A stretch of DNA of 64,000 nucleotides from positions 7,705 through 71,704 of the forward strand of contig DJCV01000010.1 in NCBI GenBank assembly GCA_002430735.1. The letters run 5' to 3'. Numbering within the stretch: position 1 is the first letter of the stretch; each line of letters opens with the position of its first letter. Below, piece by piece: positions 5,174-41,876 of the stretch. The translations under genes and the position numbers were made by a program. The stretch is from Candidatus Woesebacteria bacterium UBA5941. Lineage in GTDB: Bacteria; Patescibacteriota; Microgenomatia; UBA8517. A model generated the notes under the pieces. That model worked only from the letters and a program-made list of their open reading frames with translations, ran no database searches and was not told where the DNA came from.

Positions 5174-5681
5174 GATGCTTCCTGTCACGATTTTAGGTAT
5201 TGATCCCGGCACAGCAACAACTGGGTTTGGTGTTATAGAAATGAATTCAAGTGGACTGGCGCTAGTAACATACGGATTAATTAAAACTGCAAAAGAAGGT
5301 TCTCCAGAAAACAGACTTGCATCAATATTTGATGAAATGAATCTGCTTTTTACTCGGTACAATCCACACGTCATGGCAATCGAAAAAGTCTTTTTCTCTA
5401 ATAACGCAAAAACTGCAATCCGCGTAGGACAAGCACAGGGAGTAATGTTACTGGCGGCTGCTCACCGTAGAGTACCCGTTGCAGAATACGCACCTGGAAC
5501 TATAAAAAAACAAGTAACAGGATCCGGGAGGGCTGATAAGAAAATGGTGATGAAAACAGTCATTGAAATATTGGGAACGAAAGTGTCAGTTGCGCTCACA
5601 GGGAAAACACATTTTGATAACGCTGCAGATGCATTGGCAATTGCCATGTGTCACGCCTTCAAAGAACGGGACAAGTCATAA
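5174..5681 (+). CDS. ruvC: Holliday junction resolvase RuvC
   Basis: ILGIDPGTATTGFGVIE, MAIEKVFFSNNAKTAIRVGQAQGV, GSGRADKKMV. I prefer the ATG at 5174; the ORF track begins at an upstream TTG at 5154. Confidence 0.88.
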
Positions 5682-13209: not shown

Positions 13210-14490
13210 ATGGCTAAGATAACCAAAATTTGGGCGAGAGAAATATTAGATTCTCGTGCTACTCCGACTGTTGAAGCTGCGTGCCAACTCGATACTGGGC
13301 TGATTGCAGTTGCATCAGTCCCTTCAGGAATGTCGACCGGATCCCACGAAGCGCTTGAACTGCGTGATGGAGATGCGACCAGATACTGGGGTAAGGGAGT
13401 ATTGAAAGCCGTTTCGAACGTCAATACGGTTCTAGGCCCAGCTATTGCACAAGCAGGAATTGATGCGTCAAATCAGCAACAAGTTGATGATTTATTGAGA
13501 CAACTCGACGGCACTGAGAATAAGTCTAAATTAGGCGCAAACAGCATACTTGCGGTATCACAAGTAATATTAAAGGCTGGAGCTGCAAGTCAAAACATGC
13601 CAATTTACCAGTGGGTTGCAATGCTTGCAAAAGCAAAAGGAATCGAAGCTCGAATTCACGCTCCCACCCCACTTTTTAACATGATAAACGGAGGATTGCA
13701 TGGGGCAGGAAACCTCGACTTCCAAGAATTTTTTGTAATTCCTGCAAGTTCAAAGCCGTATTCAGAAGGGCTTCGTATTGGAGTGGAAATCTACATGACA
13801 ATTGGAAATAACTTAGCAAGACGAGGTGCAATTCACTCTGTTGGGAATGAAGGAGGATATGCGCCGAATTTGTTCACCAATACCGATGCCCTTGAAATAT
13901 TAGTAGAGTCAATCAGGGAAGCTAATTACCAAATTGGCCGAGATGTATTTCTCGGGTTAGATGTTGCAGCAGACACATTTTATAAAAACGGTGTGTACAC
14001 CATTCGCGATAAATCTACTCCATTAAACGAGACAGCGTTGATTGAATTTTATAAAGAAGTAAACAATATGTATCACTTAGCAGTACTTGAAGACCCACTG
14101 TATGAAGACGGGTGGGAGGGGTGGAAGAAGTTGAGACAAACGTTAGGTGACCAAATTGCAATTGTTGGGGATGACTTATTAGTTACCAATCCAAAACGTG
14201 TTGAAAAAGCAATTGCAGAGGAAGCATGTAATGCAATTTTAGTTAAGCCAAACCAGATTGGAACTATTTCAGAAACAATTGATGTTATTAAAAAAGCACG
14301 AGACGCGAAGTGGAAGGTTATTGTCTCTCACAGGTCTGGAGAAACTAATGAATTTTTAATTGCAGACTTTGCCACAGGAGTGGGCGCTGATTATGTGAAG
14401 TTCGGTGCTCCTGCACGAGGAGAGCGCGTTGCCAAATACAATAGACTTCTTTCTATTGAAGCAGAGCTCATGATGACTCAAAACAAATAA
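13210..14490 (+). CDS. eno: Enolase
   Basis: MAKITKIWAREILDSRATPTVEA is an enolase N-terminal signature, and the C-terminal SHRSGETNEF motif is present. Confidence 0.95.
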   Translation: MAKITKIWAREILDSRATPTVEAACQLDTGLIAVASVPSGMSTGSHEALELRDGDATRYWGKGVLKAVSNVNTVLGPAIAQAGIDASNQQQVDDLLRQLDGTENKSKLGANSILAVSQVILKAGAASQNMPIYQWVAMLAKAKGIEARIHAPTPLFNMINGGLHGAGNLDFQEFFVIPASSKPYSEGLRIGVEIYMTIGNNLARRGAIHSVGNEGGYAPNLFTNTDALEILVESIREANYQIGRDVFLGLDVAADTFYKNGVYTIRDKSTPLNETALIEFYKEVNNMYHLAVLEDPLYEDGWEGWKKLRQTLGDQIAIVGDDLLVTNPKRVEKAIAEEACNAILVKPNQIGTISETIDVIKKARDAKWKVIVSHRSGETNEFLIADFATGVGADYVKFGAPARGERVAKYNRLLSIEAELMMTQNK

Positions 14491-14726
14491 AAGACCACGG
14501 GGTATTCCCGTGGTTGCAGTCTATCACTTGCTAAAAATCTGCTGAATTTCCTCGAATGGTTAATACAACTGCTGAAATAAGAAATGCTTACTAGTACGAC
14601 TACCGCGATGTGCGACTGTGTTTCTCTTGGTAGACCAGTACGGGACAACGACTGTTCATACTCAATAAGCACCCATACTCCAAGTAGAGAAAAGAAAATA
14701 CCAATACCTCTCACGAAAATTTTCAT
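14478..14726 (-). CDS. Possible small membrane protein (83 aa)
   Basis: An internal Met is preceded by AGGAGAG. Hydrophobic segments. The 3' end runs through the eno terminator palindrome (accacgg..ccgtggt, 14498-14518). Confidence 0.3.
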   Translation of the reverse strand: MKIFVRGIGIFFSLLGVWVLIEYEQSLSRTGLPRETQSHIAVVVLVSISYFSSCINHSRKFSRFLASDRLQPREYPVVFYLF

Positions 14727-32390: not shown

Positions 32391-32464
32391 GGACCCTTAG
32401 CTCAATTGGCTAGAGCGATTCATTGACGTTGAATAGGTTCTGGGTTCAAGTCCCAGGGGGTCCA
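32391..32464 (+). tRNA. tRNA-Val (anticodon GAC)
   Basis: Acceptor GGACCCT/GGGGTCC (one G-U pair), D-arm GCTC-AATTGGCTA-GAGC, anticodon stem ATTCA/TGAAT with loop TTGACGT, T-arm CTGGG-TTCAAGT-CCCAG. A TATAAT box lies at 32373-32378. Confidence 0.88.
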
Positions 32465-32501
32465 CACAGTAACTCCACCTTCGCTTCTGGAAACGATTTT
32501 A

Positions 32502-33793
32502 TTAATGAGTCCCTCTTTGAAGCAGATCTAAACTGGTGCTTTGCATAAGCGGGGAGGGGTTAATTGCTTGCAGTTTTTCTATAGTTTCAACATTTCTAAA
32601 CACAAGCGCTAGTATCGCGTCCTCTAACAGTAAATGTAGATTATACGTAAGCGTTGGTTGTGCATGTTTTATATAGCTTAAGTATGCTTTTGTTGTTTCA
32701 CCTTCAACAAAGGAAGGAATCCCAAAAGGAAGTAATTTACCATCCAAATACTTTGTTCGAGCTGATGCTTCTCCTCCGTATGGCTTAAATAATTTACCTT
32801 TACTATCAACAAAAAAGAGTGCCCCTCCTGGTGATTCAATAGTGCCACCACCGACCACTCGCGTAACTCCAATACCACTTGCACCAAGTAATAGAGTCAC
32901 TGCAATATGATCAGATGCGCCACCTTCGACGAGCACTGGCTTATCAATCTCTCCGCGCAAATTCCAAACCAGTGCAGGCCATTCAATGGCACTACCACTT
33001 CGCACGCCGGTTATACAACGACCTCCACCACCGATACCCAGATAGAGTCCATCCGCACCAGCACGGCATGCAGCAACAGCTTGCTTCACATCAATAATTT
33101 GTCCGGTAAATATCTCTATTTCATCTCCGTACTGCTTTCGCAGTGCAGTCACAGTCTCAACAGGACCAGTTCCTGGCTCTGGAGAGTACACCCTGAATGT
33201 CCTTACTCCTGCTTTAAAAAGCATTTCAGTTCTTACTAATGCCTTGGCAGGATCTGCCTCAACAGTTCCCATGATGTTTGACTTCCAGTGAGCAGTAACA
33301 CGCTCACGATCTGGGTTGTCAGATAACAACGTGTCTGCCAACTCATCAAGTATTTCAAATACTTCTCGGGCGACATCAGTCTGACGTTCACTCTGAGCTA
33401 AAACTCCATTGCGGGGAATACAAGTTAATGCATGAGATGCAGCCATCGTTGCAATTGCAAGTGATGAATTCCACACATCGGGAGAAGCGGATCCGACAAA
33501 CGGAATACGAGCATATTTACCGAGCTTCAAAAATGGCCCATGCGCGTATCGTTCAGTCCGGCTTGCACGCTCATGATCGGCTCCAACAACACTTGCCGCA
33601 AGGTCTCCTATCGAAAGGGATAATCCATTCTTTTCTGCTTGAGTAAATACGGGTGCCGCAATTTTTTTCGGTGCTATGAAAGGACGTTTTGTTGTCTCAA
33701 GAAGACTGTTTAATCGATAGGGATGATTAAATAGTTTTAAAAAGAACCACCGCATGGCAAGCGTTTCATAAATCCGAGAAATAGGAAGCATAT
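32502..33793 (-). CDS. IMP dehydrogenase / GMP reductase family protein (TIM-barrel catalytic domain)
   Basis: GLYLGIGGGGRCITG corresponds to the IMPDH GIGPGSICTT Cys loop. VLVEGGASDHIAVTLLLGASGIGVTRVVGGGTIESPGG corresponds to the IMPDH VIADGGI..GD..KA.A.GA..VM.G..LAGT.E.PG stretch. The ORF track extends to 34154, but that extension overlaps rdgB, so I prefer the internal Met at 33793. Confidence 0.65.
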
Positions 33794-34040
33794 GCACTGA
33801 CTGGTAATCAAGGTAATCAAATGGCGTTTTTAAGAGTCCTTGGCTTGGAGATACTGTTGGATGTTCCTGGCTTAAAGCAAGCCAACGGGTAAGGTATGTT
33901 TTACTTTTCTGTCTTTTCTTTAATTCAGACAGTATTTGTTTGGTACCATGATCCGGATCTCGTAAAAGACCGAAGTCTGCTCGTAGGCTTTCTAGGTTTT
34001 TGTTCTTCACGATTGAAAACAAGACCACTATACTACATTC

Positions 34041-34598
34041 ATGAAAGTGAGCAAGATATATTTTGCAACAACGAACGAAGGAAAGATTGCAGAAGCAAAA
34101 ACACTTCTTGGAATTGGGATTGAAGGGTGCGGCCTTCCCATTGATGAAATCCAATCACTGGATGCTTCAGAAGTTGCTCGAAAAAAAGCACTTGCTTACT
34201 ATGAAAAACTGCAAAAACCAATTTTAGTCGAAGACGTTTCACTCACTTTCCAAGCCTTAAATGGACTTCCCGGAACATATATTAATGACTTTTCAAAGGT
34301 ACTTGATAACAAAGGGTTGTGTCACTTAATGCGTGACGAGAAAGATCGCTGTGCAACGGCAATCACAACGCTCGTGTTTATTGATAGTGAAGGCACACCG
34401 CACGAGTTCGTGGGGGAGGTACATGGTGATATCACAAAAGAGCCAAGAGGAGAGAAAGGGTTTGGATGGGATCCCATTTTTCAGCCAAACGGATCAGATA
34501 AAACGCTTGCAGAAATGGATATCGAAGAAAAAAACACCTACTCAATGAGAGCACGTGCATTTGAAAAATTTAAAACCTGGCTTGAGACCCAGGAGTAA
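34041..34598 (+). CDS. rdgB: Non-canonical purine NTP pyrophosphatase (RdgB/Ham1, ITPase)
   Basis: IYFATTNEGKIAEAK is the N-terminal signature. Ham1 length and motifs (FGWDPIFQP). Confidence 0.85.
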   Translation: MKVSKIYFATTNEGKIAEAKTLLGIGIEGCGLPIDEIQSLDASEVARKKALAYYEKLQKPILVEDVSLTFQALNGLPGTYINDFSKVLDNKGLCHLMRDEKDRCATAITTLVFIDSEGTPHEFVGEVHGDITKEPRGEKGFGWDPIFQPNGSDKTLAEMDIEEKNTYSMRARAFEKFKTWLETQE

Positions 34599-34650
34599 TA
34601 TCGAGCGGGATTAGCCACAGACATCCTCTTCTACTATAATAGCGCTATCA

Positions 34651-34721
34651 GGGCCCCTCGTTCAGTGGTAGGACACATGGCTGGCAGTCATGGAATGAGG
34701 GTTCGATTCCCTCGGGGTCCA
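34651..34721 (+). tRNA. tRNA-Ala (anticodon GGC)
   Basis: Acceptor GGGCCCC/GGGGTCC with the G3:U70 Ala identity pair. Anticodon stem CATGG/TCATG with loop CTGGCAG. T-arm GAGGG-TTCGATT-CCCTC. A TATAAT box lies at 34635-34640. Confidence 0.88.
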
Positions 34722-34740
34722 CATAGTCCACAAAACACAC

Positions 34741-38295: not shown

Positions 38296-38317
38296 GTAAA
38301 AGACCACCAATTGATGA

Positions 38318-38349
38318 AAGGGCACGTTTACATGCGTGCCCTTTTTTTG
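38318..38349 (+). terminator. Intrinsic terminator
   Basis: aagggcacg-tttacatg-cgtgccctt followed by TTTTT. Confidence 0.65.
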
Positions 38350-38421
38350 TTTCGTTTTTTTGAAAAAAGACCTATAGCAGCGTATACTACAATACCGACA
38401 GCTAGTGAATGGAATTCTGAA

Positions 38422-38724
38422 ATGGTTGTGACGCTGTATGGATTATCAAAGCCCGCGGAAGTTGTCATGCGAAAAGTGTTTGGGGACGACGCGACATATG
38501 AAGTGAATCCAGAGGGGATACGGTATGCAATTAAAGGTGTTCCTACAACACCAGGGATAATTGTCTCCGTCGAACCAAAGGATAAAACACCAGTAGCATT
38601 AAGTGATCTGGTTAACTTAAGTGGCGTTTTCCTGCAATATATTTTCGCGTTAGACAACGAGACACTGCCGTTTACATACGATGTAGCTTATGAAGGCAAG
38701 GTAATCGGACAACTCACTTTCTGA
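38422..38724 (+). CDS. Hypothetical small protein (about 101 aa)
   Basis: I took the first ATG downstream of the terminator; the ORF-track start at 38311 overlaps the terminator. Confidence 0.4.
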   Translation: MVVTLYGLSKPAEVVMRKVFGDDATYEVNPEGIRYAIKGVPTTPGIIVSVEPKDKTPVALSDLVNLSGVFLQYIFALDNETLPFTYDVAYEGKVIGQLTF

Positions 38725-38736
38725 TCGGTGCTTGAA

Positions 38737-38767
38737 GGGCGTGGAAATCCTCCACGCTCTTTTTTTG
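38737..38767 (+). terminator. Intrinsic terminator
   Basis: gcgtgga-aatcc-tccacgc followed by TTTTTTT. Confidence 0.6.
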
Positions 38768-38797
38768 TTGACATTTTCGAGAGGGAAGACCATAATT
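38768..38797 (+). promoter_or_regulatory. Sigma70-like promoter of the thrS leader
   Basis: TTGACA (38768-73), 17-nt spacer, CATAAT (38791-96). Confidence 0.45.
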
Positions 38798-38802
38798 TAT
38801 CT

Positions 38803-38970
38803 ATTCTTGTACGCTACTATCTGGACTAACCAACCAAGAGAGTACAAAATCGAATTACTTTACGTTACAAGTTAAAGCGGCTAGATTCGTCTAGCAAGCG
38901 AAGTGGAACCACGGATAACACCGTCTTCGCAAAAACATTTTTTAAGTGTTTTTGTTAAGGCGGTTTTTTT
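38803..38970 (+). ncRNA. Candidate T-box riboswitch leader of thrS
   Basis: Antiterminator: A1 GCGAAG (38898-903), 7-nt bulge UGGAACC (38904-10), A2 ACGG, loop AUAACA, CCGU, A1' CUUCGC (38925-30). GUGGAACCACGG matches the T-box consensus GUGGNACCGCGG with one mismatch. The competing terminator is ACCGUCUU...AAGGCGGU (38957-64) plus a U-run. Upstream stem UUGUAC/GUACAA encloses ACC (Thr) codons and an AGAGAG stretch. Confidence 0.55.
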
Positions 38971-38982
38971 ATTTTTACATAT

Positions 38983-40743
38983 ATGGACAAACAAGACCTA
39001 CAGTATTTAGACAATCTGAGACATTCAGCAGCACATTTGTTAGCTGCAGCAGTCATGGAGCTATACCCTCATGCCAAACGAACAATTGGACCTTCAATTG
39101 AGAACGGATTTTATTTTGACTTTGATTTTGGTGACACGAAGGTTTCTGAGGATGACCTGATCCGAATTGAGGAGAAAATGAGAGAAATTATTAAAACCTG
39201 GACTGGATTTGAACGGTATGAATTATCAGCGGATGACGCTAAAAAAGAATATCCAGATAATAGCTATAAACACGAATTAATTGACGAATTTTCTGGAAAA
39301 GGAGAAACGCTCACATTCTACAAGTCAGGTGAATACTGGGATCTATGCCGTGGAGGACACGTTGAGCATCCAAATCGCGAACTGAAACATTTTAAATTAA
39401 TGTCTATTGCAGGAGCATATTGGAGAGGAGACGAGAACAATAAAATGTTAACTCGTATTTATGGAACCGCATTTCCAACAAAGGATGAATTAATGAAGCA
39501 CCTTCATATGCTTGAAGAAGCAAAGAAACGTGATCACAGAAAATTAGGTCGTGAGATGGATTTATTTACGTTCTCAGAACACGTTGGAGGAGGATTACCG
39601 CTATATACCCCAAAAGGTGCCCTTGTTCGACGGCTCTTAACTGATTTCATTGAAGAAGAGCAGGTGAAGCTTGGATATACCCAAGTGTGGACTCCACAGA
39701 TTGCAAAAGCCTCCCTTTTTAAACTGTCTGGTCACTATGACAAGTATAAAGACGACATGTTCCGTGTTGTCTCAAACTATTCCGATGAAGAATATTTCTT
39801 GAAACCAATGAATTGCCCGCAGCACACACAGATTTATGCTTCTCGTGCGCGAAGTTACCGAGATTTACCACTTCGGTATTCAGATTTTGCAATGTTATAT
39901 CGGGATGAGCGACCAGGAGAATTAAACGGACTAGCACGCGTCAGGTCCTTTTCAACGGATGACTGTCACATCTTCTGCCGTGAGGATCAGGTTGACGCCG
40001 AAATTGACAAAGCGCTGCAAATGACCAAGCACGTAATGGAAATATTTGGATTCAAATATCGGTACCGCCTGTCTACCCGAGACCCGCAAAACAAGGAAAA
40101 ATACTTAGGTGATCCAGCAACGTGGGATAAAGTTGAAGCATGGGCGGTTGAGATTATGAAGAGAAATGAGATCCCATACTATGATGGGCCGGGAGAGGCC
40201 GCATTCTACGCTCCTAAGATGGATTTAATGGCTACAGACGCATTAGGGCGTGAGTGGCAACTTTCAACAGTCCAGATTGACTACGTACAGCCAGAACGCT
40301 TTGGATTATCATACACCGATTCAGATGGAACGGATAAAACTCCCGTTATGCTGCATCGCGCAGTACTTGGCTCGGCAGAGCGAGCAATGATGATCCTTCT
40401 TGAGCATTTTGAAGGACGACTTCCAGTTTGGCTCGCACCTATTCAAGTAAAGGTACTTCCAATTTCTGACAAACACATTGAATATGCAGAAAAAGTAGTA
40501 AGTACGCTCAAAACCGGAGGCATTCGGGCTGAAGTAGATAGCCGCAGCGAAACGCTTAACGCAAAAATTCGGGATGGGGAGATGGAGAAGACCCCATATT
40601 TGCTCGTGGTCGGCGATCGCGAGCAACAAGAAGGAACAGTCGCCCCACGTGCTCGTGGTAAAGGGAACCAACCTGCGGTACAATTAGAAAACTTCCTCGC
40701 TCATATTCATGAGCTAGTGACCCAAAAGTCACTTGAGGTTTGA
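38983..40743 (+). CDS. thrS: Threonyl-tRNA synthetase, short form without the N-terminal TGS/editing extension
   Basis: YLDNLRHSAAHLLAAAVMELYPHAKRTIGPSIENGFYFDFD, class II motifs and a C-terminal anticodon-binding domain. Confidence 0.95.
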   Translation: MDKQDLQYLDNLRHSAAHLLAAAVMELYPHAKRTIGPSIENGFYFDFDFGDTKVSEDDLIRIEEKMREIIKTWTGFERYELSADDAKKEYPDNSYKHELIDEFSGKGETLTFYKSGEYWDLCRGGHVEHPNRELKHFKLMSIAGAYWRGDENNKMLTRIYGTAFPTKDELMKHLHMLEEAKKRDHRKLGREMDLFTFSEHVGGGLPLYTPKGALVRRLLTDFIEEEQVKLGYTQVWTPQIAKASLFKLSGHYDKYKDDMFRVVSNYSDEEYFLKPMNCPQHTQIYASRARSYRDLPLRYSDFAMLYRDERPGELNGLARVRSFSTDDCHIFCREDQVDAEIDKALQMTKHVMEIFGFKYRYRLSTRDPQNKEKYLGDPATWDKVEAWAVEIMKRNEIPYYDGPGEAAFYAPKMDLMATDALGREWQLSTVQIDYVQPERFGLSYTDSDGTDKTPVMLHRAVLGSAERAMMILLEHFEGRLPVWLAPIQVKVLPISDKHIEYAEKVVSTLKTGGIRAEVDSRSETLNAKIRDGEMEKTPYLLVVGDREQQEGTVAPRARGKGNQPAVQLENFLAHIHELVTQKSLEV

Positions 40744-40785: not shown

Positions 40786-41361
40786 TTGAACAAGTTATCC
40801 GTCCGAGTCAACCAAGAAATCCGCGCACCAGAAGTGCGTGTTTTATCTGAAGAAGGAAAACAAGTTGGTGTTATGAAGCTTGGGGAAGCACTTTCCCACG
40901 CCAAGAACCTAGGAGTCGACCTCATCGAGATCGTTCCTAACGCAGTGCCACCAGTTGTAAAAGCTATTGATATCGGTAAATATCGATACCAAGAAGAGAA
41001 GAAAGCTCGGGAATTAGCGAAAAAGAACAAAGGGTCTGAAGTAAAAGAGATTCGCTTTACGCCTTTTATTGGAGATGCAGATTTTGAAACCAGAATCCGT
41101 AGAATTGAGGAATTCTTAGGAGAAAGCAACAAAATTCGCATTGTAGTTGTATTTTCCAATAAGCAGCTTGGAGCGAAAGAACATGGGTATAAGGTATTAC
41201 AGCGAATTCTTACAAAGTTTGAAGGACGCGTAGTATTAGACATGGATGCTAAATTCTTTGGAAGACATTTAGCAATGGTTATCTCACCATATAAAAAAGG
41301 GAGCAAAAAAACAGAAGAATCTAAAAATGCCGAAAGCAAAAACGAACAAATCAATAACTAA
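40786..41361 (+). CDS. infC: Translation initiation factor IF-3, non-ATG (TTG or other) start, with a Lys/Ser-rich C-terminal tail
   Basis: INQEIRAPEVRVLSEEGKQVGVM, EIRFTPFIGDADFETRIRRIEEFL. The start position is approximate. Confidence 0.85.
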   Translation: MNKLSVRVNQEIRAPEVRVLSEEGKQVGVMKLGEALSHAKNLGVDLIEIVPNAVPPVVKAIDIGKYRYQEEKKARELAKKNKGSEVKEIRFTPFIGDADFETRIRRIEEFLGESNKIRIVVVFSNKQLGAKEHGYKVLQRILTKFEGRVVLDMDAKFFGRHLAMVISPYKKGSKKTEESKNAESKNEQINN

Positions 41362-41537: not shown

Positions 41538-41876
41538 ATGCGAGTAAAATCAATTGCAAGCCGAAAACACAAAAAGATCCGACAAGCGACTAAGGGATTC
41601 AGAAATGCAGCCCGTCGTCGTATTAATGCTGGAAAGCAAGCTATTATGCATGCTGGACAATACGCATATGTTGGACGAAGACTTCGAAAACGAGATATGC
41701 GTTCCCTTTGGATCGTTCGACTTTCCGCAGCTGCAAAAGCTGAAGGAACAAGCTACAGCGTATTAATCAATAAATTGAAGAAAGCGAATATCGAAATTGA
41801 TCGAAAGATTTTAAGTGACATTGCAATTAAAGACTATAACACCTTCAAGAAGATCGTTTCAGATCTCTCCAACTAA
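41538..41876 (+). CDS. rplT: 50S ribosomal protein L20
   Basis: MRVKSIASRKHKKIRQATKGFRNAARRRI...YVGRRLRKRDMRSLWIVRLSAAA. Confidence 0.95.
   Translation: MRVKSIASRKHKKIRQATKGFRNAARRRINAGKQAIMHAGQYAYVGRRLRKRDMRSLWIVRLSAAAKAEGTSYSVLINKLKKANIEIDRKILSDIAIKDYNTFKKIVSDLSN

Follow-up and report, generated by a model that had tools for sequence, protein, structure and literature searches.

The T-box riboswitches described to date set clear expectations for the RNA element studied here, the leader of the thrS gene (threonine-tRNA ligase) in a 64,000-nucleotide (nt) stretch of DNA from Candidatus Woesebacteria bacterium UBA5941. This whole stretch is referred to as the window; coordinates are positions in it, and L-numbers designate the comparison loci that were retrieved. 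The discriminator is essentially identical across all T-boxes, transcriptional T-boxes generally need a long Stem I with an IDTM (interdigitated double T-loop motif), and ultrashort Stem I's are found in translational, mostly actinobacterial T-boxes, where Stem II is then essential (PMC7583486). Truncated Stem I's hardly bind tRNA without Stem II (PMC7583486, PMC11297988), and a 2024 study reported that Stems II and IIA/B make up for the absent elbow contact (PMC11297988). The aminoacyl group has been described as being sensed sterically, and primarily by the G·U pair at the end of helix A2 (PMC7583486). For the discriminator signatures see PMC7583486, and for the IIA/B element with its F-box PMC11297988.

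Two known systems are closest to the thrS leader. With the transcriptional glyQS T-boxes of Bacillus and Geobacillus it shares a terminator facing a competing antiterminator, a compact design without Stem II, a specifier codon that fits the regulated aminoacyl-tRNA synthetase gene, a UGGN-ACC bulge between helices A1 and A2, and a Stem III with an RRRxG...AA purine string. In glyQS, unlike in the window element, Stem I is long and carries a kink-turn (K-turn), an S-turn within an internal specifier loop, and a distal IDTM stacking on the tRNA elbow, whereas Stem I of the window is only about 41 nt long, displays the codon in its apical loop and has neither K-turn nor IDTM; conversely, the IIA/B pseudoknot is missing from glyQS, while the window keeps an IIA/B-type element with an F-box, and the terminal A2 pair is G·U in glyQS but A-U in the window. 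With the actinobacterial ileS T-boxes of Mycobacterium and Nocardia, which have an intermediate or "ultrashort" Stem I (PMC7583486, PMC11297988), the leader has in common a short Stem I that lacks an IDTM, the IIA/B element with its F-box (CGUCA in Mycobacterium tuberculosis, CGUUA in the window, CGUCA in L110) and the same discriminator core; the ileS elements, however, act on translation by sequestering the Shine-Dalgarno (SD) sequence and depend on a Stem II with an S-turn that braces the codon-anticodon duplex, whereas in the window an intrinsic terminator is present and Stem II is missing.

We propose that this leader is a tRNA-Thr-sensing T-box riboswitch controlling thrS by transcription attenuation, a reading to which we assign a probability of roughly 85%, and that its control probably extends to the co-directional infC-rpmI-rplT genes. 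The structural elements of a T-box are present, the antiterminator and the terminator exclude each other, the elements covary and the codon fits the gene. Structurally, the predicted element is a T-box of a new form and belongs to a sizeable unannotated family of the Candidate Phyla Radiation (CPR, or Patescibacteria). It joins a terminator to an ultrashort Stem I that displays the specifier at its apex, lacks a Stem II and retains an IIA/B element; these features have not previously been described together.

Two exclusive folds and an ultrashort Stem I

The leader (38768-38982) lies between a small upstream open reading frame (ORF), which has its own terminator at 38734-62, and the thrS ORF (38983-40743). 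Its antiterminator, or discriminator core, occupies positions 38898-38930 of the plus strand, to which all features described below belong unless stated otherwise, and is identified by alignment to the Rfam T-box model RF00230 and by a fold of -11.2 kcal/mol. Helix A1 (GCGAAG 38898-903 with CUUCGC 38925-30) flanks the 7-nt T-box bulge UGGAACC (38904-10), and helix A2 (ACGG 38911-14 with CCGU 38921-24) carries the loop AUAACA (38915-20). The intrinsic terminator (38920-38970; -22.6 kcal/mol, z = -6.7) consists of a hairpin at 38920-38964, in which ACCGUCUU (38920-27) pairs with AAGGCGGU (38957-64), followed by a run of seven U residues (38964-70). The 3' strands of A2 and A1 double as the 5' arm of this hairpin, so that antiterminator and terminator have positions 38920-30 in common. 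Folded in full, the leader adopts the terminator structure, both in the minimum free energy (MFE) structure (-43.1 kcal/mol, z = -3.2, equalled by none of 200 shuffles) and in the centroid, and when it is cut before the terminator 3' arm it folds as the antiterminator with the 7-nt bulge. The terminator is thus about twice as stable as the antiterminator (-22.6 vs -11.2 kcal/mol), a weak antiterminator that needs a ligand to prevail being what T-boxes usually have. The thrS ATG, in front of which no SD sequence is visible, follows 18 nt after the hairpin and 12 nt after the U-run.

The original prediction, made from the DNA letters alone, had read this leader as a T-box with mutually exclusive antiterminator and terminator and without a good SD sequence; folding with and without the 3' arm yields both structures, and the promoter, A1, the bulge, A2, its loop, the terminator pairing and an upstream UUGUAC/GUACAA stem all lie where it had placed them. 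That stem does enclose ACC triplets and the AGAGA stretch, so its location as the Stem I and specifier region was correct, but its ultrashort form with an apical specifier, and the missing Stem II and elbow platform, had not been recognised.

In the predicted fold, and in an alignment of 25 leaders, Stem I is an ultrashort, two-tier structure of about 41 nt (38807-38847). The outer helix (UUGUAC 38807-12 with GUACAA 38842-47) leads to an internal loop with GCUACUAUC (38813-21) on its 5' side and AGAGA (38837-41) on its 3' side, where the relatives have 8-9 nt and about 3 nt (RRA), respectively; the inner helix (UGG 38822-24 with CCA 38834-36; 3-4 bp across relatives) is closed by the apical loop ACUAACCAA (38825-33; 7-9 nt across relatives). 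In an ungapped alignment of the 25 leaders, fitted to no structure, 76% of the cells of both helices are paired as against 54% in column shuffles, none of 500 of which reach 76%. Each of the 11 pairs varies in both of its bases, and the pairing drops to 32-49% when the partner is shifted by 1-3 columns. The specifier, ACC (a threonine codon) followed by a conserved A (38829-38832), is represented by the first ACC (38829-31) and stands at the apex of the 3-bp inner hairpin rather than in an internal specifier loop. The specifier columns (26-29) read ACC in 24 of the 25 subfamily leaders and ACU in L096, in each case followed by A. When leaders were selected solely by their T-box core, ACC was found within a hairpin loop in 21 of 29, and L056 has ACU. 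Both ACC-to-ACU changes are synonymous in the threonine frame only, which fits the regulated gene, thrS. More distant CPR lineages display the loop CUACCAA, which has the format of an anticodon loop (C32-U33-NNN-A37-A38), on stems of wholly different sequence.

A canonical Stem I, with K-turn, internal specifier loop with S-turn and distal IDTM with AG bulge and distal loop, is not present in 38807-47. Because the specifier loop is itself the apex of Stem I, there is no distal Stem I region, and hence no IDTM elbow platform. A K-turn at the base of the stem was considered and rejected on inspection of the alignment, which shows no 3-nt bulge followed by a G-A dinucleotide in the internal loop. 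A loop-E or S-turn-like internal loop (xGUA opposite RRA) is possible from its sequence in most members, while the window has CUA instead. The idea that the apical ACCA acts as a cis mimic of the tRNA 3' end, pairing with UGG, was also set aside, as ACU and ACCG variants (L096, L056, L111) keep the threonine codon and lose CCA.

Stem I is followed after just 3 nt (38848-50) by the IIA/B element, in the window as across the family alignment, and there is no Stem II. The IIA/B-type element with its F-box (38851-38872), recognised by alignment to the F-box of RF00230 and by covariation in 19 leaders, comprises IIA (CG 38851-52 with CG 38863-64), the F-box CGUUA (38863-67) and the loop-linker helix IIB (ACUU 38857-60 with AAGU 38869-72). 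Its general form in the family is CG-loop-CG-UUA/AAA with a loop-linker helix. IIB is 90% paired across the 19 leaders and all five pairs vary on both sides, against 18-39% in slid controls, with variants such as AAUC/GAUU in L001, GUAGG/CCUAC in L106 and CCAA/UUGG in L110. The CG/CG pairs of IIA never vary across the 19 leaders, and the pseudoknot topology is accordingly one that we infer from the published description (PMC11297988). Downstream follows Stem III with the purine string (38875-38897): AAGCG (38875-79), the hairpin GCUAGA-UUCG-UCUAGC (38880-95), present in both MFE and centroid folds, and AA (38896-97), an exact match to the published 5'-RRRxG-Stem III-AA-3'. Stem III of L001 differs in sequence (UCCCU/AGGGA), and most subfamily members keep the AAGAG or AAAAG and have a short A-rich linker in place of Stem III.

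A family of related leaders in Patescibacteria

The core [AGU]UGGAAC[CG] was found upstream of thrS in 28 of the 76 species-level CPR loci with enough upstream sequence, and in all CPR thrS leaders seen the N of UGGN is A. Scanning metagenomes with the core pattern of the window added about 22 further distinct leaders of its subfamily, which brings the related Patescibacteria leaders, species-level loci and metagenomes together, to about 50. Of the 33 metagenome matches 24 lie just upstream of a thrS on the same strand, the others being contig ends, canonical T-boxes of other than threonine specificity and one chance match in ffh. Set aside were L090, a canonical Firmicutes-type T-box; L102 and L104, T-boxes of the same canonical type upstream of a cysE-like ORF; L116, a longer and more canonical-looking thrS leader; and L092, the chance occurrence inside ffh.

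The A1 helix is conserved as a pairing and not as a sequence, with 14 distinct 5-nt arms in the CPR thrS leaders. A perfect Watson-Crick partner is found downstream for 22 of 29 arms in their own leader as against 31 of 756 arms swapped between leaders. This comparison counts Watson-Crick pairs only; an earlier version, which allowed G·U over a 70-nt span, was too permissive (76% of own arms against 38% of swapped arms at 6/6). Within the subfamily 95% of the A1 cells are paired, and the outer pair covaries (AU 16, CG 3, UA 1, GU 2). The terminal A2 pair varies across the wider CPR family. The terminator 3' arm, which lies outside the search pattern, is 85% paired in 23 leaders, in all of which the U-run is conserved, and it follows the changes in A2, as in L099 and L110, where CCCGUCUUC pairs with GAAGGGAG. 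Stem I, the specifier and the antiterminator are thus all conserved and covarying in orthologous leaders, the comparison that had been suggested along with the T-box reading, and the defining core of that reading is supported by it.

A covariance model, R1, was derived from 17 CPR leaders that included neither the window nor the relative closest to it, L001. It matches the window at 38804-38930 over its full length (model positions 1-111) with 64.7 bits and E = 1.5e-13, by far the best match in the 64 kb. The second match (14491-14583, minus strand, 21.8 bits), the only other one with E < 0.01, is no T-box but a CCACGGG/CCCGUGG hairpin immediately behind a plus-strand gene that ends at 14490; it has a UGCAACC "bulge" and no gene downstream, and is probably a bidirectional terminator. 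Further T-boxes with complementary arms were not found in the window, and none stands before pheST or tyrS. TGGNACC occurs 32 times in the window, both strands counted, and the sole TGGNAC[CG] site with a perfectly complementary downstream 5-nt arm is the one in the thrS leader.

These elements are not recovered by the current models. None of 20 CPR thrS leaders passes the RF00230 gathering score, and four compact members have no match to it even at E < 0.01, whereas the canonical control L090 scores 104 bits. The TBDB database draws on RF00230 for its class I (transcriptional) set and applied its class II model to Actinobacteria only; the CPR elements would therefore be absent from the Rfam and TBDB collections.

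The family varies in size and surroundings. The smallest members, L100 (44-165) and L095 (2329-2455), measure about 115-125 nt from Stem I to the U-run and consist of Stem I, a linker of about 21 nt with AAGAG, and the antiterminator and terminator, without IIA/B and without Stem III. L085 (1046-1180) has a T-box of the subfamily before an ORF of about 265 amino acids (ATG 1317) with an internal repeat and of unknown function, and no thrS follows before the end of the contig. In a CPR subgroup (thrS leaders L005, L009, L011, L013, L039, L074 and L078) AUGGAACC is combined with a very short A2, and a conserved upstream GCCACC can pair with a downstream, SD-like GGUGGC followed by a U-run; the sequestering or terminating helix there closes around the entire T-box hairpin and does not overlap its 3' strand, an arrangement that amounts to a different switch topology.

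Another type of leader was found at 11 of the 76 CPR thrS loci (L006, L007, L008, L010, L014, L015, L046, L057, L066, L070 and L073). These non-T-box leaders, 100-300 nt upstream, contain a short ORF with 3-7 consecutive threonine codons (for example MKQIVLQTTTTTCP and MYNTLMINEITTTTTTTNP; none in a reverse-strand control), a GC hairpin and a U-run, and look like leader-peptide attenuation of thrS. At none of the 76 loci do a T-box core and such an ORF occur together. In L086 (about 5262-5330, MEIFNKIVTTTHS...) and L108 (about 485-560, MGIKRNITTTQSQ...) a short ORF with a run of threonine codons directly follows the T-box terminator, and a T-box and a leader-peptide attenuator may thus stand in tandem before thrS.

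Proposed mechanism and alternative explanations

In the proposed mechanism, transcription would begin at about 38803, and the nascent leader would form the short Stem I, the apical loop of which would display ACC and then A for pairing with the anticodon GGU of tRNA-Thr. The 3' end of uncharged tRNA would pair with the UGGA of the 7-nt bulge; the A at position N in all CPR thrS leaders predicts U73 in tRNA-Thr, and thus a U73-C-C-A end. This pairing would stabilise the weak antiterminator, with Stem III and the purine string packed against A1/A2, and allow readthrough into thrS. When the tRNA is charged or absent, the stabler terminator (38920-64) with its U-run would form, and transcription would stop 12 nt before the ATG. 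Binding of the tRNA and discrimination between its charged and uncharged forms are what we infer. Complementary anticodon loops form unusually stable complexes, a classical finding, and our proposal is that a loop-loop ("kissing") recognition of the anticodon might compensate for the absent elbow platform and Stem II. The broader claim would be that miniature transcriptional T-boxes of about 115-165 nt are widespread in Patescibacteria and hold the tRNA by the kissing apex of Stem I and the NCCA-binding bulge alone, with no elbow platform, Stem II or conserved G·U sensor; we regard the arguments for and against it as evenly balanced.

Several points weigh against a tRNA-sensing T-box in the window. 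The original prediction had named RF00230 as the model to search with, and the outcome is mixed: at its gathering score (93 bits) there is no match in the whole window, where the Rfam search gave four tRNAs only, whereas a permissive search of the leader region alone (38700-39020, 321 nt) gives 37.9 bits (E = 3.7e-7), well below that score. In this alignment the fit is good over the 3' half (F-box CGUUA, Stem III, AAGCGAAGUGGAACCACGG, A1/A2), and the Stem I/II columns are spuriously forced onto the terminator of the upstream gene and the DNA before the promoter. ARAGORN finds no tRNA-Thr gene in the window, in L001-L116 or in a 10-kb extension to the right (L117-119). The IDTM elbow platform and Stem II are both missing, contrary to the requirements in the literature, and the terminal A2 pair is A38911-U38924, a Watson-Crick pair in which the U is kept, instead of the canonical G·U. 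The switch would have to reach adequate affinity and speed of tRNA binding without IDTM and Stem II, and to reject charged tRNA without the G·U. A specifier at the apex would direct Stem I away from the body of the tRNA, a geometry that fits poorly with a short linker (21 nt in L100).

Some of the same points would favour a translational T-box, the 3' hairpin of which blocks the thrS start, or a relic, in which an unresponsive hairpin sets basal attenuation. The short Stem I's known to date belong to translational T-boxes, the hairpin stops 18 nt short of an ATG without a visible SD sequence, A-U replaces the G·U sensor pair, and the close relatives L003 and L087 share the core without a terminator, their ATG lying about 20 nt after A1. 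The hairpin of the window, however, has the full signature of an intrinsic terminator (GC-rich base, -22.6 kcal/mol, seven U residues, and a U-run in 23 leaders) and covers neither the start codon nor an SD-like sequence, and a relic is at odds with the purifying selection on the specifier, the bulge and the purine string in about 50 leaders; we therefore consider both forms of this explanation unlikely. That the leader merely resembles a T-box by chance, as an ordinary leader with a terminator that happens to contain GUGGAACC, could draw on the score below the Rfam gathering threshold and on the spurious Stem I/II alignment to DNA upstream of the promoter. It is contradicted by the comparative data, with four separate covarying helices, a conserved specifier, 64.7 bits by an independent model and the same architecture before thrS in many CPR lineages, and we give it hardly any weight; chance is rendered unlikely by the unique complementary-arm site in the window together with the recurrence before thrS in dozens of genomes.

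The two other explanations invoke regulation of thrS by different machinery. In Escherichia coli the synthetase binds an operator in the thrS leader, and by analogy Stem I could mimic the anticodon arm of tRNA-Thr and bind threonyl-tRNA synthetase (ThrRS). The regulated gene is indeed thrS, and part of the family has a 7-nt Stem I loop in anticodon-loop format, CUACCAA, but this loop displays the codon ACC and not an anticodon read by ThrRS (GGU, CGU or UGU). Such an operator, moreover, leaves the UGGAACC bulge, the F-box, the purine string and the terminator/antiterminator pair unaccounted for, the match to RF00230 and the covarying A1 being specific to T-boxes, so that it seems very improbable. 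A ribosome-mediated leader-peptide attenuator would be in line with the 11 of 76 CPR thrS loci that have a threonine-run ORF, hairpin and U-run, and ACU and ACC triplets do occur in the leader of the window. This leader nevertheless contains neither an AUG nor a run of threonine codons; its sole open frame, from UUG 38808, has three scattered threonines among 22 codons and no SD sequence, and no locus combines a T-box core with a threonine-run ORF. We accordingly see very little chance that it works in this way. A T-box that senses tRNA-Thr and attenuates transcription is the reading that we retain.

Genomic setting and implications

The leader is preceded by a sigma-70-type promoter (38768-38796) with TTGACA at 38768-73, a 17-nt spacer and CATAAT at 38791-96, which matches the consensus at 11 of 12 positions and is the top promoter-like site within 38300-39300. 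It directly follows the terminator of the upstream gene, and the predicted transcript start is at about 38803. L001 has TTGACA-17-CATACT at the equivalent relative position, where TTGAC-type boxes occur in many subfamily members. Intrinsic terminators are used in this genome (three in 1 kb, as compared to 0.7 expected).

The thrS gene (38983-40743; TIGR00418, 686.7 bits) is followed by infC (40786-41361; TIGR00168) and rplT (41538-41876; TIGR01032), all on the plus strand. The order thrS-infC-rplT is repeated in L081-L083, and the order thrS-infC-rplT-pheS-pheT of the window is the classical one. A few kb upstream of thrS are the genes for tRNA-Val(GAC) and tRNA-Ala(GGC) (32391-34722), a synteny kept in many CPR loci (e.g., L026, L029, L064, L085 and L086). 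The first of two ORFs at the window edges is a truncated dnaE. ThrRS of the window has 586 amino acids and begins at the tRNA_SAD editing domain, without an N-terminal TGS domain, and some of its relatives have about 100-200 additional N-terminal residues; these residues explain the larger distances between the T-box and the ThrS match in L103, L105 and L098.

The 80 best relatives of ThrS in a species-dereplicated genome collection are all from metagenome-assembled genomes (MAGs) of Patescibacteria/CPR, the closest, with 76% identity, being from a Candidatus Woesebacteria, in agreement with the CPR origin that had been suspected from the DNA alone. Many of the MAGs with the nearest relatives (L001-L080) are titled "uncultured Gammaproteobacteria" or "Pseudomonadales"; these titles look wrong, since the sequences of thrS and its leaders and the synteny fit Patescibacteria.

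Full-text searches of open-access papers found no mention of T-boxes in CPR/Patescibacteria, and a 2024 perspective on these bacteria names riboswitches only as possible engineered tools. The T-box mechanism would thus be extended to the CPR, where native RNA regulators are essentially undescribed, in elements that annotation based on Rfam and TBDB misses. An ultrashort Stem I joined to a terminator in the absence of Stem II counts as non-viable in current reviews, and with these leaders the requirements of a co-transcriptional tRNA sensor can accordingly be tested directly; the members of about 115 nt are attractive both for structural work and for the engineering of tRNA-responsive switches. 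If two contacts do suffice to hold the tRNA, the elements would represent a minimal natural tRNA-sensing switch and contradict the rule that transcriptional T-boxes require the IDTM, and, the CPR being deep-branching, they could bear on which T-box architecture arose first. Sister lineages have a threonine-codon leader peptide in the position of the T-box, so that two unrelated devices appear to respond to one signal at one gene. CPR bacteria depend on hosts for amino acids, and a sensor of tRNA charging on thrS, and probably on infC and rplT, would tie their translation capacity to the supply of threonine.

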